10,652 bases of DNA, from IMG/VR virus record IMGVR_UViG_2671180884_000028, positions 1 through 10,652 of that record. One strand, written 5' to 3'. Made by a program: the position numbers and the translations under genes. Below are positions 1-10,652 of the stretch, in pieces; position 1 is the first letter of the stretch, and the number at the start of each line of letters is the position of its first letter. Source of the stretch: a virus. Its lineage: Duplodnaviria; Heunggongvirae; Uroviricota; Caudoviricetes. Below the pieces are notes generated by a model that did not search any database, had not been told where the DNA came from, and worked only from the letters and a program-made list of their open reading frames with translations.

Positions 1-1242
1 ATGGCGAGAAAAACACCCCCATTAACCACAGTACAGATCAAAGCAGCCAGACCAGCAGAAAAGGAATACACCCTACAGGACGGCGGAGGGCTTTTTCTCC
101 TGATCAAACCGTCTGGATCAAAACTCTGGAGATTTTCCTACTACCGACCATCGGACAAAAAAAGAATATTGCTGAGTTTTGGATCGCTTGATGATGTTTC
201 CCTGGCTGATGCCAGAAAACGCCGTAGCGAGTACAGGGCGTTAATTCGTGCCGGAACTGACCCGCAGGACCACGAGAGGCAAAAAAGAGAGGCAGAGGCC
301 CGAAGACAAGGGAACACGTTCGAAAATGTGGCAACAGCATGGTACCAGGTGAAAATCAGCCAGAATCTGGCCCCCAATACGATTAAAGACATCTGGCGAT
401 CGCTGGAAAAATATGTATTCCCGTTCATCGGCAACACGCCAATAGACACCCTGACCGCTCGCAGGTTTGTTGAGGTGCTTACCCCCATCAAGGAACGTGG
501 CAACCTGGAAACGCTCAAGCGAGTTTTACAGCGTGTAAATGAGGTAATGGATTACGCCGCCAATAGTGGGATGATTGATGCCAATCCGGCTATGAATGTG
601 CGTAAGGCGTTCCCCTCCCCTGTAAAAAAACATATGCCAACAATCCGCCCCGAACAGCTGCCGGAGCTTATGCAGGCTTTATCAGTATCGGCAACAGAAC
701 GGCAGACCAGATTACTGATTGAATGGCAGTTACTGACCGTAACCCGTCCCGTTGAAGCATCGTCGGCACGCTGGGAAGAAATCGACATGGAGGCGCAACG
801 CTGGACCATACCCGCCGGACGCATGAAGATGCGCCGCGACCACGTTATCCCGCTTTGTGACCAGGCTATGGCAGTGCTGGAGGCTATGAAACCAATCAGC
901 CACCACCGCGATTATGTTTTCCCGAGTCTGAAAGACCCACGGCAGCCGATGAACAGCCAGACAGCAAACGCAGCATTACGACGCATGGGGTTCGCTGGCG
1001 TGCTGGTGTCTCATGGATTACGCGCCATATTCAGCACAGCAGCGAACGAGGAAGGATTCGAGCCGGACGTAATCGAGGCGGCACTTGCCCACGTCGACAC
1101 CAACGAAGTCAGACGGGCATACAACCGGAGCAACTACATAGAAAAACGCGTGGTGCTTATGCGCTGGTGGGGCGAATTTGTCGAGGCTGCGGCGACGGGC
1201 GTAACCCTCGCCAGTGGTAAAAGGGGTATCCGAGCCGTTTAG
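1..1242 (+). CDS. int: Tyrosine recombinase / integrase, P4-type (N-terminal arm-binding domain plus C-terminal catalytic domain)
   Basis: 413-aa ORF from ATG at 1 to TAG at 1240-1242. N-terminus (LTTVQIKAARPAEKEYTLQDGGGLFLLIKPSGSKLWRFSYY) is typical of the DUF4102 arm-binding domain of P4-like integrases. C-terminal region (HVIPL..., HGLRAIFSTAANEEGF..., RAYNRSNYIEKR) fits the tyrosine recombinase catalytic R..HxxR..Y pattern. Confidence 0.9.
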   Translation: MARKTPPLTTVQIKAARPAEKEYTLQDGGGLFLLIKPSGSKLWRFSYYRPSDKKRILLSFGSLDDVSLADARKRRSEYRALIRAGTDPQDHERQKREAEARRQGNTFENVATAWYQVKISQNLAPNTIKDIWRSLEKYVFPFIGNTPIDTLTARRFVEVLTPIKERGNLETLKRVLQRVNEVMDYAANSGMIDANPAMNVRKAFPSPVKKHMPTIRPEQLPELMQALSVSATERQTRLLIEWQLLTVTRPVEASSARWEEIDMEAQRWTIPAGRMKMRRDHVIPLCDQAMAVLEAMKPISHHRDYVFPSLKDPRQPMNSQTANAALRRMGFAGVLVSHGLRAIFSTAANEEGFEPDVIEAALAHVDTNEVRRAYNRSNYIEKRVVLMRWWGEFVEAAATGVTLASGKRGIRAV

Positions 1243-1340
1243 CTGTACAGAAAACCAGTAAAAACTACGAAAACCATTTAAAACCGTCGTATAATTGCAT
1301 CACATTTAACGACGAGGCCTTGAAAAATGAAACCGTTAAG

Positions 1341-1571
1341 ATGCAAACAAATTTCAGATGCAATTGCGACGGGCTGCAACTGGCCCTGATGGTTCAGCAT
1401 GAATTTTGGTCAACCTACGATCCGGAGGACAGAACGACGGCCCCATCAAAAAAACAGGTAGTAGATTTCCTGGTATCCCGTGGAGCTTCCAGAAATCTGG
1501 CTGTAAGTATTGATAAGGTTGTACGTCCGGCATCCATGAAGACCGGAGGCAGGCCAAAAAAATGGCGGTAA
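1341..1571 (+). CDS. Hypothetical small protein (76 aa from first ATG; ORF is open from TTG at 1320)
   Basis: Open frame ending TAA 1569-1571, preceded by a TATAAT hexamer at 1290-1295 and followed directly by a strong intrinsic terminator. No convincing Shine-Dalgarno; AGA/AGG codons present. An alternative 20-aa ORF from ATG 1327 has a better RBS (GAGG at 1313-1316). Could instead be a non-coding RNA. Confidence 0.3.
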   Translation: MQTNFRCNCDGLQLALMVQHEFWSTYDPEDRTTAPSKKQVVDFLVSRGASRNLAVSIDKVVRPASMKTGGRPKKWR

Positions 1572-1581
1572 CAATCCTGAA

Positions 1582-1605
1582 AGCGGCAGAAATGCCGCTT
1601 TTTTT
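1582..1605 (+). terminator. Rho-independent terminator
   Basis: Hairpin AGCGGCA-gaaa-TGCCGCT (7-bp stem, GAAA tetraloop) followed by a T-run of 7. Confidence 0.7.
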
Positions 1606-1632
1606 ATAAATCCCTTTCAAATCATCAATATA

Positions 1633-1720
1633 AAAAACGGTGTATACCGTTTAAAAACGGTGAGTACTGTTTTTCCCTGCATCCGATGATTTACCGTATT
1701 TCTCACCGGAATACACCGGA
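1633..1720 (+). promoter_or_regulatory. alpA upstream control region with repeated motifs
   Basis: Direct repeats AAAAACGGTG at 1633-1642 and 1653-1662 (20 bp apart), the first inside the inverted repeat AACGGT-gtat-ACCGTT (1636-1651). Direct repeats CACCGGA at 1704-1710 and 1714-1720 (10 bp apart), just upstream of the alpA RBS. Confidence 0.3.
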
Positions 1721-1738
1721 TTAATGAGGTAAATCACG

Positions 1739-1945
1739 ATGGAAGCAATCAAAAAAGTCATCTTTCGCCAGGAAGTAAAAAAACTTATCCATATTAAGGC
1801 AGACAGCACGCTGCAAAGCATGATCAACGCCGGAGAATTCCCGCAGGGTTTTCGTGTCGGTTTGCGCCGTCGCGGATGGTATGAGGAAGACGTAATCGCA
1901 TGGATGAAAGAACGCGAACAAGAAGCGCGCGGAACGACCGCTTAA
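1739..1945 (+). CDS. alpA: AlpA-family transcriptional regulator (prophage CP4-57 regulatory protein-like, HTH)
   Basis: 68 aa; ATG 1739, TAA 1943-1945; RBS TGAGG at 1725-1729. Sequence (FRQEVKKLIHIKADSTLQSMINAGEFPQGFRVGLRRRGWYEEDVIAWM) fits the AlpA/MerR-like HTH pattern (Φ..EV..L...STL...I..G.FP....VG.R..GW.E.DV..WM). Confidence 0.8.
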   Translation: MEAIKKVIFRQEVKKLIHIKADSTLQSMINAGEFPQGFRVGLRRRGWYEEDVIAWMKEREQEARGTTA

Positions 1946-2066
1946 CATATATAGGGCAAATGATGAACATAAAAAAAGCGGCCCCGAAATGGAGCCACCT
2001 TTCTGAACAATTAACCCGCTGCGCCGTATGTGTCAACAATCATAAGCCTGGGCATGATAACCGCGA

Positions 2067-2270
2067 TCAGGCTGGTGGGCAATTATCTTGCTTGTTGGGG
2101 CCGTATTGTGCTGCCATTTTCATCCGTTCAGAACGTGAATATTTTTTTAGAAACTCATCAAGGACAAAAGCGCATGGTGCGAATCTTTCTGATTCATGCT
2201 CGAGCGCCATATTTTCGTGCTCTCTGTTCGTTTTTTGCGATGGTGTATTGGTTGATTCTTTGTTGGTCAT
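2067..2270 (-). CDS. Hypothetical protein (67 aa), possible second gene downstream of the RHH repressor
   Basis: ATG at 2270 (minus strand), 57 bp downstream of the RHH gene stop on the same strand. Hydrophilic, no recognisable domain, weak RBS. Coding status uncertain. Confidence 0.2.
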   Translation of the reverse strand: MTNKESTNTPSQKTNREHENMALEHESERFAPCAFVLDEFLKKYSRSERMKMAAQYGPNKQDNCPPA

Positions 2271-2327
2271 TGTGTGTACCTGTAAAGCAATGCGCCGGAG
2301 TTCCTCACGCCACGGCGCTGATGGTTT

Positions 2328-2519
2328 TTATCCTTTGGGTTCTATGCCGCGCCGCTTTAGTTCAGTGCGCCCCAACTCTTTAAGCCAGTTGGCCAGGCTT
2401 ATGCCGTCGCTCTGTGCTTCTTTATCGAATTGCTCTTTTAGCTCTGGAGAAATTCGCATTCTGAATTGTGGGGATTGCCCGTCCCCTTTAGGGCTTTTAT
2501 CGCGTTTGATTGTTGACAA
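2328..2519 (-). CDS. Arc-like ribbon-helix-helix (RHH) DNA-binding protein, candidate island repressor
   Basis: The C-terminal 50 aa (SPQFRMRISPELKEQFDKEAQSDGISLANWLKELGRTEL) match the P22 Arc N-terminal beta-strand/helix pattern (MPQFNLRWPREVLDLVRKVAEENGRS...). Start is ambiguous: the ORF is open from TTG 2600; TTG 2519 is preceded by AGGTGA; ATG 2459 would remove the beta-strand. Stop TAA is the reverse complement of 2328-2330. Confidence 0.6.
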   Translation of the reverse strand: MSTIKRDKSPKGDGQSPQFRMRISPELKEQFDKEAQSDGISLANWLKELGRTELKRRGIEPKG

Positions 2520-2561
2520 GTGGTCACCTATTGAATTAGCCTTTCTATTGTTAGGTGACCA
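2513..2561. promoter_or_regulatory. Candidate operator/promoter: perfect 10-bp inverted repeat beside a consensus -35 hexamer
   Basis: TTGACA at 2513-2518; TGGTCACCTA at 2521-2530 and its exact reverse complement TAGGTGACCA at 2552-2561 (21-bp spacer). Lies between the RHH gene and the rightward early operon. No good -10 at canonical spacing, so the promoter call is tentative. Confidence 0.4.
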
Positions 2562-2653
2562 CCTTAACACAAGAGCACTTAAAAAAGCAAAGCCCCGCAA
2601 GTGTCATTACCACTCGCAGGGCTTCTAACCAACAACGTAAACTAGGAGCCGTT

Positions 2654-2848
2654 ATGGTTGCTGTAAATCATATACCACACCTTGTACACACACAAACTGC
2701 CTTTGTGTGGCGTTTTCTGGCACTGAGTGCCGGAGAATCTCAAATCATCCACGTAACCGCCTGGACGGAACGCGAAGCGCGTAACCGTTGCCCGTCCGGT
2801 TGTGTTGCTGTATTTGCCGCCCGTATTCGTCAGGAGGTAGGCTTATGA
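2654..2848 (+). CDS. Icd/Ash-like small protein (host cell-division-inhibitor-like family of P4-type elements)
   Basis: 64 aa from ATG 2654 with RBS AGGAG at 2644-2648. Motifs FVWRFLAL...TEREARNR...FAARI resemble the Icd-like family as recalled. The ORF track's longer version starts at GTG 2555 and would overlap the RHH gene. Confidence 0.5.
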   Translation: MVAVNHIPHLVHTQTAFVWRFLALSAGESQIIHVTAWTEREARNRCPSGCVAVFAARIRQEVGL

Positions 2849-3078
2849 GCCAGGAAATCACACTACAACAGGCAGCAGAACGCGCCCACCAAATCGAAGT
2901 TATTTGCGCACTGGCAGAGGATTACCCTGGCATGATGACCGACAGCGAATCAGGGGCAATCATCGGCTTACTTAAACGCCTTAGCGGTGAGGTCTGCGTA
3001 TTCCTGAGCGATGAACAGGAAAGAAGAACGCTTATTTCTAACGAAAAAAAATGCGGAGGGGTACACCATGTGCAATAA
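2845..3078 (+). CDS. Hypothetical protein (77 aa)
   Basis: ATG 2845 overlaps the upstream stop (ATGA at 2845-2848); RBS AGGAGG at 2832-2837. Confidence 0.55.
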   Translation: MSQEITLQQAAERAHQIEVICALAEDYPGMMTDSESGAIIGLLKRLSGEVCVFLSDEQERRTLISNEKKCGGVHHVQ

Positions 3079-3289
3079 CATCCGTCCGGACGCAGCAGCC
3101 GCCGCGCTCACTACGCTGATGCACGCGCTTATCGATATTGAATGCACTGCAGAGCTTGCGCAGGGAGAAGAACAGAAAGACCGGACACAGTTCGCCCTGG
3201 AATGTATCCGATACATCGCAACGCGGTCGCTGAATGACGCTAAAAATATTCTTGTTGCTGATTGTGAAAATGGGGGGGGTTATGCGTGA
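3068..3289 (+). CDS. Hypothetical protein (73 aa)
   Basis: ATG 3068 preceded by GGAGGGG (3055-3061). Overlaps the end of the upstream ORF by 11 nt. An in-frame ATG at 3011 lacks an RBS. Confidence 0.5.
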   Translation: MCNNIRPDAAAAALTTLMHALIDIECTAELAQGEEQKDRTQFALECIRYIATRSLNDAKNILVADCENGGGYA

Positions 3290-3515
3290 TGATCGTTTTA
3301 ATTCCCTGAAACAGGAATTTTCCGGCGTTCCTGATGATGCGGCTGATGCGCTTTCGTCAATGCCAGAACTTATTAGAGCGGCTTTTTTCTTACTTTCCAC
3401 GAGAGAATATAAATCAACGGGGCTTGATGTACTGAATATCGCCGCCGATTATGCGGAATATGTGGCAGAGGCGCGTTACAGAAGAAAATTTCCTGAGGAT
3501 GTAAGCCATGCGTGA
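3282..3515 (+). CDS. Hypothetical protein (77 aa)
   Basis: ATG 3282 preceded by a G-rich RBS (GGGGGGGG at 3272-3279). Overlaps the upstream stop at 3287-3289. Alternative ATG at 3234 has no RBS. Confidence 0.5.
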   Translation: MRDDRFNSLKQEFSGVPDDAADALSSMPELIRAAFFLLSTREYKSTGLDVLNIAADYAEYVAEARYRRKFPEDVSHA

Positions 3516-3741
3516 TATTTACCTCGAAACAATAGACCGCGCATTTCTTGCACTTTCTCACAGTGAAAGCATGATGGAAATATTACGCATATGGCTTGAA
3601 ACACTTGGCGACAATGAACGCGACAAACAAAAATCAAGAATTGCCACGGTATTAATAACGCTTCTTGAGCCTGTAATAATGGAACTGCAAGAAATAGACT
3701 TATTGCACGACAGATATAACGAACAGCACACCGGAGAATAA
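3508..3741 (+). CDS. Hypothetical protein (77 aa)
   Basis: ATG 3508 with GAGGA at 3495-3499; 8-nt overlap with the upstream ORF; stop TAA 3739-3741. Confidence 0.55.
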   Translation: MRDIYLETIDRAFLALSHSESMMEILRIWLETLGDNERDKQKSRIATVLITLLEPVIMELQEIDLLHDRYNEQHTGE

Positions 3742-3746
3742 AAATA

Positions 3747-4046
3747 ATGAAACTTAAATATTCTGGCTTAACTGCCAGTGGCAACACTCACCCTAAATTT
3801 ACGCGCGGTGATATTTACCGCGACCAGTACGGCGGCACGGTAATGATTAAGGGCGTGGCGGGACGGTGCGTAACTTACCGCCGTGAAGGTTACGAATATG
3901 ATTGCGTGATGCCTGTTTATCAGTTCCGGCGTGATTTTTCTCTGGTACAGACCGCGCCGCATAACGTGCCCACCAGCAACGCCAGAGCACGGGCAAACAT
4001 CCAGAAGCTGAAAACCATGATTAACGGATTCAGGGGTAAAAAATGA
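3747..4046 (+). CDS. Hypothetical protein (99 aa)
   Basis: ATG 3747 with GGAGAA at 3733-3738. Its stop overlaps the primase start (ATGA at 4043-4046), indicating translational coupling. Confidence 0.55.
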   Translation: MKLKYSGLTASGNTHPKFTRGDIYRDQYGGTVMIKGVAGRCVTYRREGYEYDCVMPVYQFRRDFSLVQTAPHNVPTSNARARANIQKLKTMINGFRGKK

Positions 4047-5797
4047 AACTGGCACCGAACGTAAAACAGCAGTCACGCGGCATAAAACACAAAGAAACAG
4101 AAGTCATTATTTTTGCGGGTAGTGATGCCTGGTCACACGCGAAACAATGGCAGGAACATGACGCGCGTATGGCCGGAGATAATGAGCCTCCTGTGTGGCT
4201 TGGGGAGCAGCAGTTATCAGAACTGGATAAGCTGCAAATTGTGCCGGAAGGCAGAAAATCCGTGCGCATATTCAGGGCCGGACATCTTGCACCAGTAATG
4301 ATCAAGGCGATTGGTCAAAAGCTGGCGGCGGCTGGTGTACAGGATGCAAATTTTTATCCTGAGGGTATGCACGGCAAGGAGGTGCAGAACTGGCGCGAAT
4401 ACCTGGCCCGTGAACGCCAGAATCTTTCTGATGGTCTGGTCATTGAGCTTCCGGTAAAGCAAAAGGCGCAACTTTCGCAGATGGCGGACAGTGAGCGCGC
4501 GCAGTTGCTTGTCGATCGCTTTGATGGCGTTTGCGTACATCCTGAAAGTGAAATCGTTCACGTATGGCGTGGCGGGGTATGGTGTCCGGTCAGCACAATG
4601 GAACTGAGCCGCGAAATGGTGGCGATCTATTCAGAGCACAGGGCCACTTTCAGCAAGCGCGTAATCAATAACGCCGTGGAAGCATTAAAAGTTATTGCCG
4701 AACCAATGGGCGAGCCGTCCGGCGATTTGTTGCCGTTCGCCAATGGTGCGCTTGACCTGAAAACAGGGGAATTTTCCCCGCACACGCCGGAGAACTGGAT
4801 CACCACGCACAACGGCATTGAATACACGCCACCAGCACCAGGGGAGAATATCCGCGACAACGCGCCAAACTTTCATAAATGGCTTGAGCACGCAGCCGGA
4901 AAAGACCCGCGCAAGATGATGCGTATATGTGCCGCGCTGTACATGATTATGGCGAACCGGTACGACTGGCAGATGTTTATTGAGGCCACCGGAGACGGCG
5001 GGAGCGGTAAAAGTACATTCACACACATAGCCAGCCTTCTGGCAGGGAAACAGAACACGGTAAGCGCTGAGATGACATCGCTTGATGATGCTGGTGGACG
5101 TGCGCAGGTTGTCGGGAGTCGTCTTATCGTCCTGGCAGACCAGCCGAAATATACAGGCGAAGGAACGGGCATCAAGAAAATCACGGGCGGCGACCCCGTG
5201 GAAATTAACCCGAAATATGAAAAGCGTTTCACGGCGGTAATCAGGGCGGTGGTGCTGGCGACCAATAACAATCCGATGATATTCACCGAACGGGCCGGAG
5301 GTGTGGCACGTCGTCGCGTGATTTTCCGTTTCGACAATATTGTTAGTGAGGCCGAAAAAGACAGGGAGCTACCGGAAAAAATTGCGGCTGAAATCCCCGT
5401 CATTATCCGCCGCTTGCTGGCGAACTTTACCGACCCTGAAAAGGCACGGGCTTTACTCATTGAGCAGCGTGACGGTGATGAAGCTCTGGCAATAAAGCAA
5501 CAGACGGATCCGGTTATTGAGTTTTGCCAGTTCCTGAATTTTCTGGAGGAAGCGCGCGGCCTGATGATGGGGGGCGGTGGCGATTCAGTGAAGTACACGA
5601 CCAGGAACAGCCTTTACCGCGTCTATCTGGCGTTTATGGCATACGCAGGCAGGAGCAAACCGCTAAACGTGGCTGAGTTCAGCAAGGCCATGAAGCCAGC
5701 GGCGAAAGTTTACGGGCATGAATATATTACGCGAAAAGTTAAGGGAGTAACGCAGACCAACGCAATTACAACAGACGATTGCGACGCGTTTTTATAA
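4043..5797 (+). CDS. Replication initiator: primase / SF3 helicase (P4 alpha-like / D5-family Pri-Rep protein)
   Basis: 584 aa. Walker A motif ATGDGGSGKST and Walker B-like RLIVLADQP in the C-terminal half. Size and layout match satellite primase-helicases. An iteron-rich origin lies immediately downstream. Confidence 0.85.
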   Translation: MKLAPNVKQQSRGIKHKETEVIIFAGSDAWSHAKQWQEHDARMAGDNEPPVWLGEQQLSELDKLQIVPEGRKSVRIFRAGHLAPVMIKAIGQKLAAAGVQDANFYPEGMHGKEVQNWREYLARERQNLSDGLVIELPVKQKAQLSQMADSERAQLLVDRFDGVCVHPESEIVHVWRGGVWCPVSTMELSREMVAIYSEHRATFSKRVINNAVEALKVIAEPMGEPSGDLLPFANGALDLKTGEFSPHTPENWITTHNGIEYTPPAPGENIRDNAPNFHKWLEHAAGKDPRKMMRICAALYMIMANRYDWQMFIEATGDGGSGKSTFTHIASLLAGKQNTVSAEMTSLDDAGGRAQVVGSRLIVLADQPKYTGEGTGIKKITGGDPVEINPKYEKRFTAVIRAVVLATNNNPMIFTERAGGVARRRVIFRFDNIVSEAEKDRELPEKIAAEIPVIIRRLLANFTDPEKARALLIEQRDGDEALAIKQQTDPVIEFCQFLNFLEEARGLMMGGGGDSVKYTTRNSLYRVYLAFMAYAGRSKPLNVAEFSKAMKPAAKVYGHEYITRKVKGVTQTNAITTDDCDAFL

Positions 5798-5810
5798 TTT
5801 TTTGTAAAAG

Positions 5811-6040
5811 CCCTCTACCCCATCTACCTGAATGAAATAAATACATATTATTCAACATGATAAGTGGGTAGAGGGCCAGGTAGAAGGCTAATAAAAGCTC
5901 TCTACCTCTTCTACCTGATTTTATCAGTTTCAGGTAGCAGGGTAGACGGTAGGTAGAGGAGCCCAAAAAGCTATCTACCCGCTGAAAGCCGCGCCATTAC
6001 TGACATGATGAGCATTCGGGTAGATGGGTAGAGGGGGGGA
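5811..6040. repeat. Iteron array / candidate origin of replication
   Basis: About 12 copies of a core TCTACC / GGTAGA motif arranged in clustered pairs in both orientations. Examples: CCCTCTACCCCATCTACCTGA (5811-5831), GGGTAGAGGGCCAGGTAGAAGG (5865-5886), CTCTCTACCTCTTCTACCTGA (5899-5919), AGGTAGCAGGGTAGACGGTAGGTAGAGGA (5932-5960), GGGTAGATGGGTAGAGGGG (6018-6036). An AT-rich stretch sits at 5831-5862. Confidence 0.6.
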
Positions 6041-6080
6041 GGCACAACTAAAAACTTTTTAAACGAGGGGGTGAAAATAA

Positions 6081-6395
6081 ATGCGCATACATCAAAATCA
6101 CTTAACAAACATGCCAGCCGAAAACATGAATCAGGGGCGACAAATGACCAAAATTCGCAGAGACAGAACAGAGCCAAAATATAAAGCGTTAGACATGACT
6201 GAGCATACCTTAAAGGTGGCAATCAGAACGATAGACCGCCACGCGGGGGAAGGATACGCGAAAGCACATCCCGACATGATAAGCGCATTCATGACCACGA
6301 CGGCGGCAAATTTTGCCACGCTGACAGAGCGGGAGATTGCGGAAGCTGAACAGGTGACAACCATCAACGTTAAAAACGTAGAGGTGGAATCATGA
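6081..6395 (+). CDS. Hypothetical protein (104 aa)
   Basis: ATG 6081 with RBS GAGGGGG (6065-6071). Stop overlaps the ssb start (ATGA at 6392-6395). Confidence 0.55.
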   Translation: MRIHQNHLTNMPAENMNQGRQMTKIRRDRTEPKYKALDMTEHTLKVAIRTIDRHAGEGYAKAHPDMISAFMTTTAANFATLTEREIAEAEQVTTINVKNVEVES

Positions 6396-6809
6396 CAGCA
6401 CAGATAGCGGCTTACGGGCGGCTGGTGGCTGGTGGCTGACCCACAGTTAAAGACCACCAGCAAGGGCACACAAATGACGATGGCGAGTATGGCGGTTCCC
6501 CTGACATGCAGCCAGGCTGATGACGGAACGGCGACGATGTGGTTATCCGTCCTGGCGTTTGGCAGACAGGCCGACGCACTGGCAAAACACCGCAAAGGCG
6601 AGCTGGTGAGCGTGGCGGGTAACATGCAGGTAAGCCAGTGGACAGGCCAGAACGGCGAAACGCGGCAGGGCTGGCAGGTTATCGCAGACAGTGTAATCAG
6701 TGCCCGTGCTGCCCGTCCTGGCGGGAGCAGACGTACAACCACAGGCACACAGGGTAATCAGCCACCAGCGGGAGGCGATGACCCTTACGGTGACGGTATT
6801 CCGTTCTGA
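6392..6809 (+). pseudogene. ssb: Single-stranded DNA-binding protein (SSB-like), disrupted by a frameshift
   Basis: ATG 6392 opens MTAQIAAYGRLVAGG and then hits TGA at 6437-6439. The rest of the protein continues in the +1 frame (ADPQLKTTSKGTQMTMASMAVPL...GWQVIADSVISA...DDPYGDGIPF) with the SSB acidic DIPF tail. A tandem 7-bp duplication GCTGGTG/GCTGGTG at 6421-6434 accounts for the shift; removing one copy restores ...GRLVADPQLK... in frame. Confidence 0.65.
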
Positions 6810-6819
6810 GGGGGTGACG

Positions 6820-7092
6820 ATGGTACATGACCGCATAGCGGAGGAACTCGAGGCAAAAGGCTTTTACCGGAGGGCGGCGGCGCGATGGGGTGAAGTTATG
6901 CAGCTGGTGGAGACAGACAAGGAACGGCATCAGGTTACGATGCGACGGCTGGAATGTTCCAGGAAGGCACAGAAGCCACCGGAGCCGCCGGATAACTTCG
7001 GAGACCTGAGAAAGGCAGTCGATCGCACTTATGCTGAAATGGGTATAGATGGTGTAAGCGATGAAATATGGCGTAATTACCCAGACAGCTAA
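6820..7092 (+). CDS. PerC-family transcriptional regulator-like protein (90 aa)
   Basis: ATG 6820 with RBS GAGGGGG (6808-6814). N-terminus MVHDRIAEELEAKGFYRRAAARWGEVMQL matches the conserved PerC/Pch N-terminal pattern as recalled. Confidence 0.55.
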   Translation: MVHDRIAEELEAKGFYRRAAARWGEVMQLVETDKERHQVTMRRLECSRKAQKPPEPPDNFGDLRKAVDRTYAEMGIDGVSDEIWRNYPDS

Positions 7093-7097
7093 TCAAC

Positions 7098-7120
7098 AGC
7101 CGGAGAAATCCGGCTTTTTT
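7098..7120 (+). terminator. Rho-independent terminator
   Basis: Hairpin AGCCGGA-gaaa-TCCGGCT followed by TTTTTT, directly after the PerC-like gene. An almost identical copy occurs at 9372-9395. Confidence 0.6.
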
Positions 7121-7131
7121 GTACCCAAAAA

Positions 7132-7169
7132 AAGCCCGATAAGTACAGGAGGCATCTTATCGGGCTTTT
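7132..7169. terminator. Second hairpin, possible bidirectional terminator
   Basis: AAGCCCGATAAG-(12-nt loop)-CTTATCGGGCTT with TTTT on the plus side and an A7 run (T7 on minus) on the other side. Confidence 0.4.
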
Positions 7170-7246
7170 GCATATGAGGTTTTTTTGGTGCACTGACACA
7201 CATGATCGGGATAATCATTTCATAATTTGCAACACAACTCAACATC

Positions 7247-7297
7247 ATTGCACAAAATGCAATCCTGATTATAATCAGAGCTGGATGTTCATCCAGT
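7247..7297 (+). promoter_or_regulatory. Promoter of the head module with three palindromic elements (candidate operator or activator sites)
   Basis: -35 TTGCAC (7248-7253), 16-bp spacer, consensus -10 TATAAT (7270-7275). The -10 lies inside the perfect 14-bp palindrome CTGATTATAATCAG (7265-7278). Flanked by ATTGCA-caaaa-TGCAAT (7247-7263) and CTGGATG-tt-CATCCAG (7281-7296). Confidence 0.5.
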
Positions 7298-7331
7298 TAT
7301 GATTTTTTAAGTCAAAGAGGAATTTCTTACT

Positions 7332-7538
7332 ATGGCTGAAGAGAAAAAAGGCGGTGTTTCGGTGTACATAAGCCCCGACATCGTGAAGGCGCTCAAGGAA
7401 CGCCACCAGCAGAACGTAAAAGCAGGCATTGCGGCAGGACTTGATCCGCTGGCGATGGTTGAGCCGTCAACAGGCTGGCAGGTGCGCGCCTACTTACGTG
7501 CGGCGCTGGGTATGAATCAGGTTCACGGGGGTGAATAA
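7332..7538 (+). CDS. Hypothetical head-module protein (68 aa), translationally coupled to the major capsid gene
   Basis: ATG 7332 with RBS AAGAGGAA (7315-7322). Stop overlaps the capsid gene start (TAATG at 7536-7540). Position suggests a scaffold or assembly factor, but there is no sequence evidence for this. Confidence 0.5.
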   Translation: MAEEKKGGVSVYISPDIVKALKERHQQNVKAGIAAGLDPLAMVEPSTGWQVRAYLRAALGMNQVHGGE

Positions 7539-8593
7539 TGGCAGGCAAAGCAATGGCACTTAACACTAACCAGCTTTTTACATACCTGAATCGCGGGGAT
7601 ATTGCGGAATTTAAATTCAGTCCGCTGTTTACCACGCTGTTTTTCCCGAACGTGGCGACATTCAGCACCCAAAACATCATGCTGGATACCCTGGACATTG
7701 AAGAAGTCACCATGTCGGCGTTTTGTTCGCCTATGGTTGGCAGTCAGGTACAGCGCGATAAAGGGTATGAAACCAGCACAATCAAACCTGGCTACATGAA
7801 GCCAAAGCACGAAATCGATCCAACAAAAACCATCATGCGCATGGCTGGAGAAGATCCGGCACAGCTTAACGACCCTACCTACCGCCGTATGCGCCTGATT
7901 ACTGGCAACATGCGCCGCCAGATAAACGCCATTAAAGCGCGCGTGGAATGGCTGGCGGTGAATGCGATAACGACCGGAAAAAACATCATTGAGGGCGAAG
8001 GCATAGAACGCTATGAAATCGACTGGAAAATACCGGAAAACTGCATCATAGAGCAGGCCAAGGGTAAAAAATGGTCCGAGCATGATAAAGATATTTACGA
8101 TCCAATCTATGACATCGAACTATACGCAGATCAGGCAGGTTGCCCCGCCAACGTCATGATTATGGGCGCTGAGGTATGGCGCACGTTACGCAGCTTTAAA
8201 AAATTCCGCGAACTGTACGATCTTTCCCGTGGTTCAGAATCCGCCGCAGAACTGGCCTGTAAAAACCTGGGTGAAGTAGTGAGCTTTAAAGGCTATCTGG
8301 GCGATATTGCCCTTATCGTCTATTCCGGCAAATACACTGACAGCGACGGTACCGAAAAATATTTCCTTGAGCCTGATTTGCTGGTCCTGGGTAACACCAA
8401 CAATAAAGGGCTGGTGGCCTATGGTGCGATTATGGATCAGGAAGCGGTAAGAACGGGCGCAACGCAAAACATGTTCTACCCGAAAAACTGGATTGAAGAC
8501 GGCGATCCGGCGATTGAGTACGTTCAGACGCACAGCGCACCGCAGCCGGTACCGGCAGATATTCGCAAATTTGTTACCGTCAAAATTGGTTAA
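7538..8593 (+). CDS. Major capsid protein, lambda gpE family (HK97 fold)
   Basis: 351 aa. Collinear with lambda gpE as recalled: EFKFSPLFTTLFF vs KFKFDPLFLRLFF; PGYMKPKHEIDP vs PGYVKPKHEVNP; GEDPAQLNDPTYRRMRLITGNMR vs DEDPQNLADPAYRRRRIIMQNMR; VSFKGYLGDIALIVYSGKY vs VSYKGMYGDVAIVVYSGQY; FYPKNWIEDGDPA vs RYPKNWVTTGDPA; C-terminus KFVTVKIG vs EFVSVQLA. Confidence 0.9.
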   Translation: MAGKAMALNTNQLFTYLNRGDIAEFKFSPLFTTLFFPNVATFSTQNIMLDTLDIEEVTMSAFCSPMVGSQVQRDKGYETSTIKPGYMKPKHEIDPTKTIMRMAGEDPAQLNDPTYRRMRLITGNMRRQINAIKARVEWLAVNAITTGKNIIEGEGIERYEIDWKIPENCIIEQAKGKKWSEHDKDIYDPIYDIELYADQAGCPANVMIMGAEVWRTLRSFKKFRELYDLSRGSESAAELACKNLGEVVSFKGYLGDIALIVYSGKYTDSDGTEKYFLEPDLLVLGNTNNKGLVAYGAIMDQEAVRTGATQNMFYPKNWIEDGDPAIEYVQTHSAPQPVPADIRKFVTVKIG

Positions 8594-8604
8594 CGGGGGA
8601 TTCT

Positions 8605-8940
8605 ATGGACACTCCATACATTGAGTTATTTGCAGGCAGTCAGCAGGTATCCACGACGCTGGTACATTTTGCCGCTGATGCTGGCGTCATTCAGGAATTT
8701 ACCCCGCTGATGCTGGCGGACAATGGCGAGTTTAAGCCGTGGGATGGTCAGGAATCTGGCAAGGCTGTTTATCTGACCTCGTACCCTGTGGACACGTCAA
8801 AGCAAAAATCAGCACAGTGTTACAAGACGGGGATATTTAATATCGCCGCCGTAAACTGGCCTGAGAGCGTCGACACTGACGCGAAAAAATGCGCCGCCTT
8901 TGCGGGTTCTGGCGTATCCGTTCAGCCGCTGGCGCGATAA
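8605..8940 (+). CDS. Head decoration / stabilisation protein, lambda gpD-like
   Basis: 111 aa; ATG 8605 with RBS GGGGGA. Matches lambda gpD as recalled: TPLMLADNGEFKPWDG vs TPLMLDTSSRKLVAWDG; CYKTGIFNIAAVNWPE vs FYKSGTFRYEDVLWPE; DAKKCAAFAGSGVS vs DETKKRTAFAGTAIS. Confidence 0.8.
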   Translation: MDTPYIELFAGSQQVSTTLVHFAADAGVIQEFTPLMLADNGEFKPWDGQESGKAVYLTSYPVDTSKQKSAQCYKTGIFNIAAVNWPESVDTDAKKCAAFAGSGVSVQPLAR

Positions 8941-8952
8941 GCAGGGGGAACG

Positions 8953-9366
8953 ATGGCAACGAATGAAAGCATCATGACGCTACCGCTGGCGAGTAAATTT
9001 AAAGCCGAAGCGCGGGCAATGGCTGACAGAGGTTTATCAACCTACGAGGCCGTATATCAACTCAACAAACTGGAAGAGCAGGACAAGCCGCGCGCTGATG
9101 CGATTATGGCGCTTCATGAACATAACGACTATCAGCCGCTGTTACGTGCAATGGCAAACGTGCCATGTATTAGCGTCGATAATGCTCGTGAAATCCTGAA
9201 CATGACCATAGAGCAGGAGCGCCCAAAGGTTGCGCCGGAGCTTACCGCAGCCTTTGAAAACTTTATGGACATGCACAGCCCGAAAGCCGTATCACCCGGC
9301 ATGGCATACGATGGCAGAAACCAGGGCGATGACGGCGACATCGATCGCATACTGAAAACCATCTGA
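8953..9366 (+). CDS. Hypothetical protein (137 aa) at the end of the head module
   Basis: ATG 8953 with RBS AGGGGGAA (8943-8950). Followed by a terminator hairpin. No recognisable homology. Confidence 0.55.
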   Translation: MATNESIMTLPLASKFKAEARAMADRGLSTYEAVYQLNKLEEQDKPRADAIMALHEHNDYQPLLRAMANVPCISVDNAREILNMTIEQERPKVAPELTAAFENFMDMHSPKAVSPGMAYDGRNQGDDGDIDRILKTI

Positions 9367-9371
9367 GACAA

Positions 9372-9395
9372 GGCCGGAGAAATCCGGCTTTTTTT
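9372..9395 (+). terminator. Rho-independent terminator (second copy of the hairpin at 7098-7120)
   Basis: GGCCGGA-gaaa-TCCGGC followed by T7. Sits immediately upstream of the cosQ-like sequence. Confidence 0.6.
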
Positions 9396-9572
9396 ACGGG
9401 TCCTTTCCGGCATATGGACCCGTTACGGGGCGGCGACCTCGCGCGTTTTCGCTATTTATGAGCCTTTTCAGGGGGGTGGTGGTGGTTTTGTTGTTTGCTC
9501 TATCTTTATGAATGAAAAGGGAAAGATGCAAACAATACACCAACCTGAAGCAGTAATTAAGTTGGTGTATTA
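9396..9572 (+). other. cos site A (cosQ-like, cosN, divergent cosB), forward orientation, upstream of terS
   Basis: ACGGGTCCTTTCCGG...CCGTTACG followed by the exact lambda cohesive-end 12-mer GGGCGGCGACCT (9428-9439), then CGCGCGTTTTCGCTATTTATGAG, closely matching the lambda genome left end as recalled. The distal part lacks lambda R-site motifs and instead has inverted repeats AATACACCAAC / GTTGGTGTATT (9530-9540 / 9561-9571) and TGTTTGC / GCAAACA (9494-9500 / 9517-9523). Confidence 0.75.
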
Positions 9573-10115
9573 ATGAAATCGCACCTGATGAACAAAAAAA
9601 ACATGGCGAAAAGCTGCCGTGTAAGTGCGACAGCGTTCGACAAGTGGGGAGTGACTCCCGTTGAACGTAAAGGCCGTGAGGCGTTTTATGATGTTGCCAG
9701 CGTGATAGACAATAGGGTTAACAATGCAATTAGCCAGCTTACAAACGACAAAGGCGATATTGATGATGATGAACTCTTACGAGTCAGGATCAGATTACTG
9801 ACAGCACAGGCGGAGGCGCAGGAACTTAAAAACGAGCGCGATCGCGGTGACGTGATTGATACTGAGTTTTGCCTGTACGCGCTTTCAAAGCTGGCGAGTC
9901 AGATTTCATCAATCATGGACAGCCTCCCGCTTACTATGCAAAGGAGCTTCCCACAGATTACCCCCGCCATGCTGGACAGGCTTAAAAGGGAAGTGGTTAA
10001 AGCCTGTAATGCCAGTGCCAGAGTTGCCGACAACCTCCCACAGATACTGGCTGATTACTTGAAAGAAACAACCGGAAACGTACCGGAAAAGTTGCTACAG
10101 AAGAAAGGCAAGTAA
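9573..10115 (+). CDS. Terminase small subunit, lambda Nu1-like (TerS)
   Basis: 180 aa. Middle and C-terminal regions are collinear with lambda Nu1 as recalled: LTAQAEAQELKNERDRGDVIDTEFCLYALSKLASQISSIMDSLPLTMQRSFPQ vs LTRAQADAQELKNARDSAEVVETAFCTFVLSRIAGEIASILDGLPLSVQRRFPE. The N-terminal wHTH region is much more divergent. Alternative start ATG 9588 (MNKKNMAK) aligns with Nu1 MEVNKKQLA. No strong RBS at either start. Confidence 0.85.
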   Translation: MKSHLMNKKNMAKSCRVSATAFDKWGVTPVERKGREAFYDVASVIDNRVNNAISQLTNDKGDIDDDELLRVRIRLLTAQAEAQELKNERDRGDVIDTEFCLYALSKLASQISSIMDSLPLTMQRSFPQITPAMLDRLKREVVKACNASARVADNLPQILADYLKETTGNVPEKLLQKKGK

Positions 10116-10340
10116 CAGAAGCGCAATTATTGAACAAAAATGAGAAACGACATGAAAGCGTCATAAATCGCCATTTCAGATGATTACCGTGTCGTTTCTT
10201 TTTATTGTGTATCTATTTAAAAACAAATAGTTATGTTCGAGAAGTACCGACATGATTTTTCCAGAAAAATTTTCATAAACAGATAAAAACCGCGAGGTCG
10301 CCGCCCCGTAACGGGCCATAATTCCAGGAAGGACCCGACG
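10116..10340 (-). other. cos site B (lambda-like cosQ-cosN-cosB) in inverted orientation, downstream of terS
   Basis: On the minus strand: CGGGTCCTTCCTGGAATTATGGCCCGTTACG, then GGGCGGCGACCT (plus 10295-10306), then CGCGGTTTTTATCTGTTTATGAAAATTTTTCTGG, then R-site-like AAGAAACGACACGG and ATGTCGTTTCTCA (perfect 10-bp inverted repeat at plus 10152-10161 / 10190-10199). This is collinear with lambda cosN-I2-R3-R2 as recalled. A 25-bp core is a perfect inverted repeat of cos A (9419-9443 vs 10291-10315). Confidence 0.7.
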
Positions 10341-10370
10341 ACACCAGACTATCAGAACGATGGGGGCACA

Positions 10371-10652
10371 ATGACAGAAGCCGAACTACTGCGATTAATC
10401 CGTCGCGTTGCCGGAATCAGCCAGCAGGCTGACGAACAGGCCACGCAGCCGGACAGCGTGACAGCCGAAAATTATGTGCGTGTTGTTGCGGAGGTGATGC
10501 GCCGTGATGGTATCCAGCTTAATGATGCGGATATGCGCGACATACGGATCCGCGTTCTTGAAATGCTGGCCTACCGTCGCCGCGTGCAGACGTACAGGGA
10601 AAAAGCAAAAATAACGTACCAGTGGAAGAAGCCGGAGCGATTACGGCGGTAA
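10371..10652 (+). CDS. Hypothetical protein (93 aa) just beyond cos B
   Basis: ATG 10371 with G-rich RBS (GGGGG at 10362-10366); stop TAA 10650-10652 at the window end. No recognisable homology. Confidence 0.45.
   Translation: MTEAELLRLIRRVAGISQQADEQATQPDSVTAENYVRVVAEVMRRDGIQLNDADMRDIRIRVLEMLAYRRRVQTYREKAKITYQWKKPERLRR

Follow-up and report, generated by a model that had tools for sequence, protein, structure and literature searches.

The DNA described here is a stretch of 10,652 nucleotides from a virus of the Caudoviricetes (IMG/VR record IMGVR_UViG_2671180884_000028, positions 1 to 10,652), hereafter called the window, which the listing of open reading frames (ORFs) and family scans show to be a complete small island running from the start of an integrase gene to its last gene. 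Every major ORF lies on the plus strand, i.e., the genes are mostly co-oriented. Our subject is a tightly packed four-gene operon at positions 7332-9366, each gene of which is preceded by a strong Shine-Dalgarno sequence as read from the letters, and which encodes, in this order, a protein of 68 amino acids (aa), a phage coat protein, a decoration (cement) protein and a 137-aa homologue of the phage lambda scaffold Nu3 (Table 1). It is nearly certain that this block is the conserved head-shell cassette of a phage-inducible chromosomal island (PICI) of the EcCICFT073 type, namely a terminator-bounded operon with its own operator-bearing promoter that comprises the 68-aa protein, coat, cement and a scaffold without protease.

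The second gene of the operon encodes a coat protein that matches PF03864 (Phage_cap_E) with 171.1 bits against a gathering threshold of 22.9 (E 4e-50), covering profile positions 15-328 of 329, and that shares 43% identity with lambda gpE across 328 aa. Among structures in the PDB it matches lambda gpE (7VI9, E 2e-81) and, over residues 2-350, entry 3BQW ('putative capsid protein of prophage', 351 aa; E 3e-231). 3BQW is the solved crystal structure of the satellite coat family; it was deposited as a prophage protein, which we take to be a CFT073 protein, and the structure is silent on the assembly state. The product of the third gene matches PF02924 (HDPD) with 65.7 bits against a gathering threshold of 29.1 (E 5e-18), aligns with the SHP protein of phage 21 (PDB 1TD0, E 1.7e-13) as well as with 1C5E, and is 36% identical to lambda gpD and 44% identical to the decoration protein of the CFT073 helper prophage. 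These hidden Markov model (HMM) searches bear out the original prediction for this stretch, made from the sequence alone, which had named a full-length coat protein of the gpE family and a gpD-like decoration protein. It had also pointed to a gene order unlike that of lambda and to coupling of the 68-aa gene with the coat gene, and its ORF coordinates and both observations hold: E precedes D here, whereas all seven phages examined carry C/Nu3, D and E in that order, and in the TAATG at 7536-7540 the TAA stop codon of the 68-aa gene shares one base with the ATG of the coat gene. The same overlap is present in relatives, and the two genes are translationally coupled. A further protein, encoded on a 3.2-kb Logan contig (P0102, 463 aa), carries the coat domain PF03864 and the decoration domain PF02924 in a single chain, and is either a real E-D fusion or the product of a sequencing frameshift across the 10-nt intergenic gap.

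The homology of the 137-aa protein is more distant. In lambda, the 3' part of gene C doubles, in frame, as nu3, which is annotated as a capsid assembly protein; a direct BLASTP comparison of the 137-aa protein with lambda Nu3 is not significant (E 3.5), and the relationship surfaces via gpC proteins of the Gifsy-1/PhiR12 type and via profiles. Searched by tblastn against 50,697 phage records, the protein matches only the 3' ends of gpC genes; a secondary PHROGs match falls on the extreme C-terminus of phrog_53 ('head maturation protease'), and BLASTP aligns it with the C-terminus of PhiR12_2 gpC (37%, E 1e-11) and with Gifsy-1 gpC (31%, E 2e-8). When the profile of the satellite family of 137/141-aa proteins was compared with that of phage Nu3 using hhalign, the two matched with 98.2% probability (E 5e-14, 117 columns), residues 1-121 of the 137-aa protein aligning with residues 71-190 of lambda Nu3, the conserved C-terminal region included. 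In two related islands, one from Lelliottia and one metagenomic, the gene following D encodes a complete S49 protease, 447 or 413 aa long (L013 11409-12752; L017 11418-12659); the Lelliottia protein is 52% identical to gpC of the CFT073 helper, and the 137-aa protein aligns with its residues 311-413. Since the 137-aa protein aligns with gpC C-termini, and an S49 gene occupies the same place in relatives, the Escherichia coli gene is taken to be what is left of a gpC-like gene, its scaffold portion, in the conserved order E, D, C. By homology, then, the 137-aa protein is a predicted internal scaffold of the Nu3 type that has lost its protease domain. Its AlphaFold2 model (pLDDT 70.6) is all-helical, with disorder at 109-126 followed by a terminal helix; a fold search with the model gave no match, and a helical build with a flexible tail would fit a scaffold. 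A full HMMER search of representative sequences with the 137-aa protein returned only eight proteins. The 142- and 143-aa genes that lie behind the S49 gene in L013 and L017 were considered as counterparts of the 137-aa gene and rejected, as they do not match it. Both islands carry more head genes than EcCICFT073, still with neither portal nor large terminase, and in the Lelliottia island a protein with a Phage_HCP head-completion domain adjoins alpA. Many 137-aa homologues (P0001 and its relatives) bear the NCBI name 'phage head-tail connector protein', which no Pfam or NCBIfam model backs and which looks like a propagated misannotation.

Both proteins that bracket the coat and decoration genes had been put forward as candidate scaffold or size-determination factors; the suggestion stands for the 137-aa protein, whereas nothing found for the 68-aa protein speaks for a scaffold. 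The latter belongs to phrog_3255, a PHROG with no assigned function, and it matches no Pfam or NCBIfam model even at E 10, no PDB entry and, by tblastn, no phage, nor is it related to Nu3. Its AlphaFold2 model, a beta-hairpin and two helices (pLDDT 75), has no significant fold match. A ribbon-helix-helix-type regulator was considered, solely from this beta-alpha-alpha arrangement and from co-occurrence with the palindrome described below, and was not confirmed. The 68-aa gene is kept, and coupled, throughout the sub-lineage to which the window belongs; it is absent from a second sub-lineage, which has, behind D, a gene for an AlpA-domain protein.

The block has its own boundaries and a putative promoter. 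Two hairpins separate it from the gene upstream, the second of which, conserved in the islands of E. coli Nissle 1917, CFT073 and JNE141411, would insulate the module from upstream transcription. The terminator that closes the operon repeats the one upstream, and such repeats also bracket the Nissle block (L001 14971-15001 and 17411-17441; 31 nt, 94% identity). Between the second hairpin and the 68-aa gene, a palindrome, TTGCA-N5-TGCAA, overlies the -35 position ahead of a perfect -10 hexamer, with a degenerate second copy at 7218-7232. Palindrome and TATAAT are conserved in islands of E. coli, Salmonella and Edwardsiella; seven of 18 fetched loci (9-49 kb each) have the exact palindrome, solely just upstream of the module (L001 15286-15300; L005 9691-9705; L006 9673-9719; L015/L016 9715-9729; L018 9917-9931), singly or as a pair with a spacing of about 30 bp, and in its exact form only in islands with the 68-aa gene. 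A consensus promoter scan reported no sigma-70 site upstream of the module, and the putative promoter/operator is called on this conservation. The island of strain JNE141411 (L018, at cspD/clpS) carries a 99.8%-identical copy of the block within another backbone, with a different integration site, primase and rpp allele. A near-identical block in a different backbone points to exchange as a cassette, and the flanking terminator repeats suggest that the block may be swapped by recombination between them.

Table 1. Genes and sequence signals of the 10,652-nt window, in order of position.
Feature	Position	Strand	Basis or remark
Tyrosine integrase	1-1242	+	passes Pfam cutoff
AlpA-like helix-turn-helix protein	1739-1945	+	weak Pfam match, E 0.003, under cutoff
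D5/P4-type primase	4043-5797	+	passes Pfam cutoff
Single-stranded DNA-binding (SSB)-like protein	6432-6809	+	ORF list/family scans
PerC-family regulator	6820-7092	+	PF06069, E 6e-45
Intrinsic terminator behind PerC-like gene	7098-7120	+	terminator scan
Second hairpin and T-run	7134-7169	+	GCCCGATAAG...CTTATCGGGC TTTT; read from sequence; kept in Nissle, CFT073 and JNE141411 islands
Putative module promoter	7248-7275	+	palindrome TTGCA-N5-TGCAA 7248-7262 over -35 position; perfect -10 TATAAT 7270-7275
68-aa protein (EcCICFT073 c1498)	7332-7538	+	phrog_3255
351-aa gpE-family coat protein (c1499)	7538-8593	+	PF03864
111-aa gpD/SHP-family decoration (cement) protein (c1500)	8605-8940	+	PF02924
137-aa Nu3-type scaffold homologue (c1501)	8953-9366	+	profile match to Nu3
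Operon-closing terminator	9373-9394	+	22-nt direct repeat, 100% identical to 7099-7120
cosN (cos1)	9428-9439	+	exact lambda 12-mer, directly downstream of module
Nu1-family protein (Rpp/TerS class)	9573-10115	+	PF07471, E 2e-23
Second cosN (cos2)	10295-10306	-	exact lambda 12-mer, inverted
93-aa protein	10371-10652	+	ORF list

The setting of the operon is that of a satellite with integrase, AlpA and primase, as had been foreseen, with Pfam models supporting the integrase and the primase and only a sub-threshold match for AlpA. The closest island is that of E. coli Nissle 1917 (93% identity over 91% of the window), which adjoins tRNA-Pro between yejM and narP and has 11,257 bp between its att-like repeats. 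In three E. coli genomes with the same block (Nissle, CFT073 and JNE141411), the island runs into chromosomal genes right behind the 93-aa gene. An island bounded in this way is not a prophage head operon, the finding that could have overturned the original prediction: the order Nu1-A-W-B-C-D-E-FI-FII followed by tail genes is not found, and in CFT073 the helper prophage (L010 39933-48879) is separate from the island (L010 1-3655). The ORF list and the Pfam and PHROGs scans show neither portal, protease, large terminase, tail, lysis nor tRNA genes in the window, and the relatives' complete islands likewise add no portal, protease or terL. Backbone, cos sites with a Nu1-like gene, and gene absences together identify the window, at the level of sequence, as an EcCICFT073-type Gram-negative PICI; helper-dependent induction, replication and high-frequency transfer have been demonstrated experimentally only for EcCICFT073 (PMC6092414). 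Directly upstream of the capsid block, with the two terminators in between, lies the PerC-family gene, which also precedes the module in the CFT073 island and is absent in the Nissle island; its ORF as listed begins at a GTG at 6700, with homology only from the ATG at 6820. PerC-like genes of PICIs have been linked to control of the pathogenicity island LEE (locus of enterocyte effacement; PMC11773190).

Downstream, the module is followed by cos and a small terminase-like gene, again as had been predicted. For an exact cosN 12-mer 0.04 chance matches are expected, and the window contains two, one in each arm of a 72-nt inverted repeat (9397-9468 / 10266-10337; 79% complementary) whose arms flank the Nu1-like gene. 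A cosN-like 12-mer with one mismatch (GGGCGGCGACCC) at 5185-5196, inside the primase gene, is probably due to chance. The two sites correspond to cos1 and cos2 of EcCICFT073, of which cos1 alone is needed for transfer (PMC6739421). The alignment of the 180-aa Nu1-like protein with lambda Nu1 (35% identity) spans residues 3-180 and takes in the C-terminal part, to which the large terminase binds; the protein has no PDB match. It differs from the 144-aa RppA ORF of EcCICFT073, the best global alignment between them covering only 48 residues at 27% identity; the window carries a full-length allele, which may be a true small terminase rather than an Rpp protein.

The four proteins of the block are 98.5% (68-aa), 96.0% (coat), 98.2% (decoration) and 92.0% (137-aa) identical to those of EcCICFT073, and gene lengths, order, coupling and the cos1/cos2 architecture are shared; in CFT073 the block stands at the right end of the island, followed by rppA, a 93-aa gene and phoQ. 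Because the gene sizes match those in the supplement of Fillol-Salom et al. 2018 (c1498, 68 aa; c1501, 137 aa; c1503, 113 aa; PMC6092414), the block is c1498-c1501. The same study assigned c1499 as capsid protein and c1500 as decoration protein of the head and drew the analogy with Ccm explicitly (PMC6092414), so that the coat and decoration gene pair of such an island is already known and was described in 2018; c1498 and c1501 are called hypothetical in the literature. In the open-access literature, outside which most subscription journals lie, we found no account of the Nu3 assignment, the protease-bearing variants, the satellite-only clade and its selection, or the operator-bearing cassette.

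The original prediction offered two roles for the module: the island would build its own, probably smaller, heads, or its coat protein would poison helper capsids and redirect their size. By this reasoning the coat would act like Ccm of the Staphylococcus aureus pathogenicity island (SaPI) SaPIbov5, and the truncated scaffold like CpmB of SaPI1, a mimic of the C-terminus of the helper scaffold, both yielding small heads that exclude the helper genome. In keeping with this, the scaffold homologue is formally CpmB-like in that it spans only residues 71-190 of Nu3 and keeps the C-terminal region, and the N-arm is the most variable segment of the coat. Ccm and CpmB are likewise a satellite-encoded coat homologue and a scaffold mimic, but they are not sequence-homologous to the island proteins. 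A coat homologue occurs in PmCI172, a Pasteurella island that produces small heads (PMC6092414). However, size redirection and interference were sought in the 96%-identical EcCICFT073 system and were not found there. EcCICFT073 DNA packaged with lambda was all phage-sized, and induction of CFT073, with its native helper, gave no band of island monomers (PMC6092414), which speaks against small heads; as regards poisoning, deletion of c1499 or c1500 made no difference, and when each gene downstream of ori was cloned singly, only c1503 (rppA) blocked lambda, plaques being restored by its deletion (PMC6739421). The c1501::tetA marker was suspected of breaking the scaffold gene, a suspicion that we rejected, because the primer arms break off at the stop codon of c1501 and pick up again at the terminator; with c1501 intact beside tetA, the published negative results hold for an intact module. 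We therefore consider size redirection or poisoning improbable.

An accessory role outside the particle is comparably improbable in our estimate. The capsid fold would then be kept for binding, with the proteins serving in exclusion of lambdoid phages other than the helper, as decoys or in regulation. The block is dispensable, has been treated as an 'adaptable module' and moves as a cassette between island backbones, and interference trials were limited to lambda, phi80 and HK97 (PMC6739421), all of which leaves room for such a function. Yet selection has kept cement and scaffold together with the coat, joined in relatives by a maturation protease, and none of the proteins of the window matches a PADLOC defence model. 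Elsewhere, in related islands, cargo genes stand beside the capsid and packaging genes, encoding a TIR-domain protein (L014 12106-13254), an Abi_C protein (L008 13180-13941) and a Hok/Gef toxin (L005 12452-12604); they look like defence or addiction genes in an accessory slot.

The satellite coat proteins form a lineage of their own. Compared with the 50,697 phage records, the coat is at most 46.5% identical to any phage protein, whereas in the protein database its relatives form a continuous series of 45-96% identity from Escherichia, Salmonella, Edwardsiella, Lelliottia, Serratia, Cedecea and Scandinavium, and the block is conserved across at least six genera. In a neighbour-joining tree the satellite coats group in one deep clade that excludes those of lambda, Gifsy-1, PhiR12_2 and three helper prophages. 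Gene contexts were taken from contigs encoding coat homologues, and 15 of 15 sampled contexts (which include L007, a second copy of the L006 island) are satellites in which D follows E and which have an integrase and a primase or helicase; a scan of genome contigs with the coat protein gave no confirmed locus. At a coverage of 80% or more the block is present in 592 of 5,426 complete E. coli genomes (about one in nine), including O157:H7, ST131-type and Nissle/CFT073-type strains. Site-wise conservation is correlated between satellite and phage coats (rho 0.48), 44 of the 65 columns invariant among satellites having the same residue in all phage coats, and satellite coats vary most at the N-arm and at residues 110-130.

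Some of the sampled islands are chromosomal; others lie inside a helper E gene, a portal gene or a P2-like tail cluster. These insertions bear on the proposal that the cassette is a back-up, or extends the helper range, by supplying coat, cement and scaffold where the copies of the helper are interrupted, limiting or incompatible, for instance when an island sits within helper late genes. Such a role has been suggested in a survey which found the coat gene in 21 of 29 reference Gram-negative PICIs, as the commonest late gene and one dispensable for transfer (PMC10111431), and it would suit the relatives embedded in a helper E gene (L009, L014) and in a portal gene (L006). But most carriers, the relatives of the window included, occupy chromosomal sites away from the helper; the portal-embedded island has no portal gene to offer; excision restores the interrupted helper gene anyway; and the satellite clade is old and distinct, not captured repeatedly from helpers. 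A back-up function is accordingly unlikely, if less so than the two roles weighed above.

Substitution patterns show the module to be under selection. The ratio of nonsynonymous to synonymous substitution rates (dN/dS) is 0.09-0.13 for the coat and 0.03-0.30 for the decoration protein (0.03-0.06 in comparisons with the window), against 0.07 for the primase and 0.13 for the integrase; for the 137-aa scaffold it is 0.25-0.32 and for the 68-aa protein 0.10-0.24, widening to 0.10-0.76, the full ranges for the module genes coming from three unsaturated pairs. Purifying selection on coat and decoration protein is as strong as that on primase and integrase. If the module were a decaying relic, left over from a lambdoid ancestor and without present function, this would explain why the published deletions are all without phenotype, but a coat at about 0.1 and a decoration protein at 0.03-0.06, values like those of essential island genes, together with the presence of the intact block in 592 genomes and its conservation in at least six genera, make such a relic very improbable indeed; the selection data come close to refuting it.

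Lambda gpD binds only the expanded gpE lattice, and we know of no role for a cement protein beyond binding the expanded lattice of its own coat. Coat, cement and scaffold homologues are mutually dependent assembly partners in lambda, and their joint purifying selection argues that shells containing the satellite coat do form in nature, expand and become stabilised; procapsids are the sole substrate on which a scaffold or a maturation protease works. The S49 protease-scaffold of the two related islands points the same way, being sensible only if procapsids of satellite coat are matured. An island without portal, large terminase and connectors would have to take these from its helper. Packaged DNA of phage length, and four island copies of 11.26 kb adding up to 45 kb, which fits a lambda head, make it most likely that such shells are full-size. 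The explanation that we tentatively favour, with somewhat less than even confidence, is therefore an accessory input of satellite shell proteins to full-size heads. Upon helper induction, the island would make its own coat, scaffold and cement, and its subunits would assemble, alone or mixed with those of the helper, into full-size lambda-like heads of the T=7 class, nucleated on the helper portal and matured by the helper gpC protease. The Nu1-like protein would redirect the helper terminase to the island cos sites, so that about four copies of the island genome enter each head, and the island decoration protein would cement the filled heads. The benefit would be conditional, for example in particle yield or in independence from the supply or compatibility of the helper coat, helper shells being sufficient in the laboratory.

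Several observations weigh against an accessory contribution to the shell. Deletion of c1499 or c1500 left both lambda interference and transfer by the resident prophages unchanged (PMC6092414), and no gene of c1498-c1501 affected lambda when expressed alone (PMC6739421). The whole 'adaptable module' c1498-c1501 has been swapped for cas9 or melA, and the islands were still delivered by a phi80 cos-deletion helper (PMC10530653, PMC10460865); as these block-replaced islands are packaged, helper coat suffices. The satellite coat is only 43-46% identical to helper coats, so its fit with the helper portal and protease is an assumption, and the Salmonella island L005 and the Edwardsiella island L006 have E and D with no scaffold gene of their own. 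Finally, a Salmonella island with lambda-type E and D lies inside the tail cluster of a P2-like prophage, between tail-fibre and tail-tube genes (L012 4292-13978); as P2-like head proteins belong to other families, its coat can be no simple mimic of that prophage coat, if the prophage is the helper.

Set beside known systems, the module is lambda-like in its parts (coat, 43%; decoration, 36%; scaffold, by profile) but not in its arrangement. Lambda has C/Nu3, D, E and the island E, D, Nu3-like; the island has no protease domain, portal, large terminase, W, FI or FII; its coat belongs to a separate clade; and its head block stands at the right end of the cos-to-cos unit, unlike that of lambda. 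Capsid-forming PICIs (cf-PICIs) such as EcCIEDL933 combine a PICI backbone of int, alpA and rep with protease, portal, connectors, HNH, TerS and TerL (bioRxiv 10.1101/2022.09.08.507074). The window resembles them in having a PICI backbone with its own coat gene, but it encodes only coat, cement and scaffold, a close relative packs phage-sized DNA and spreads without them, and no portal, protease, connectors or TerL were found in the window or in the relatives' complete islands. A bolder proposal, possible but in our view doubtful, is that EcCICFT073-type islands are partial capsid-formers, whose shells, in natural pairings, would consist wholly or partly of satellite coat, cement and scaffold around a stolen portal; the S49 variants of Lelliottia and of the metagenomic island would then bridge classical PICIs and cf-PICIs, and the 68-aa protein and the TTGCA-N5-TGCAA palindrome would form a dedicated switch of the cassette.

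Among the phage late genes of Gram-negative PICIs, coat genes occur most often (PMC10111431). A scaffold within the cassette, a protease in its relatives, and an old satellite lineage under selection make the hypothesis of an own shell concrete and directly testable. There is a practical side as well, in that the block is the very 'adaptable module' that engineered PICI delivery vehicles discard. If the proposal is true, partial capsid-formers would soften the distinction between satellites which steal entire capsids and satellites which take tails alone.

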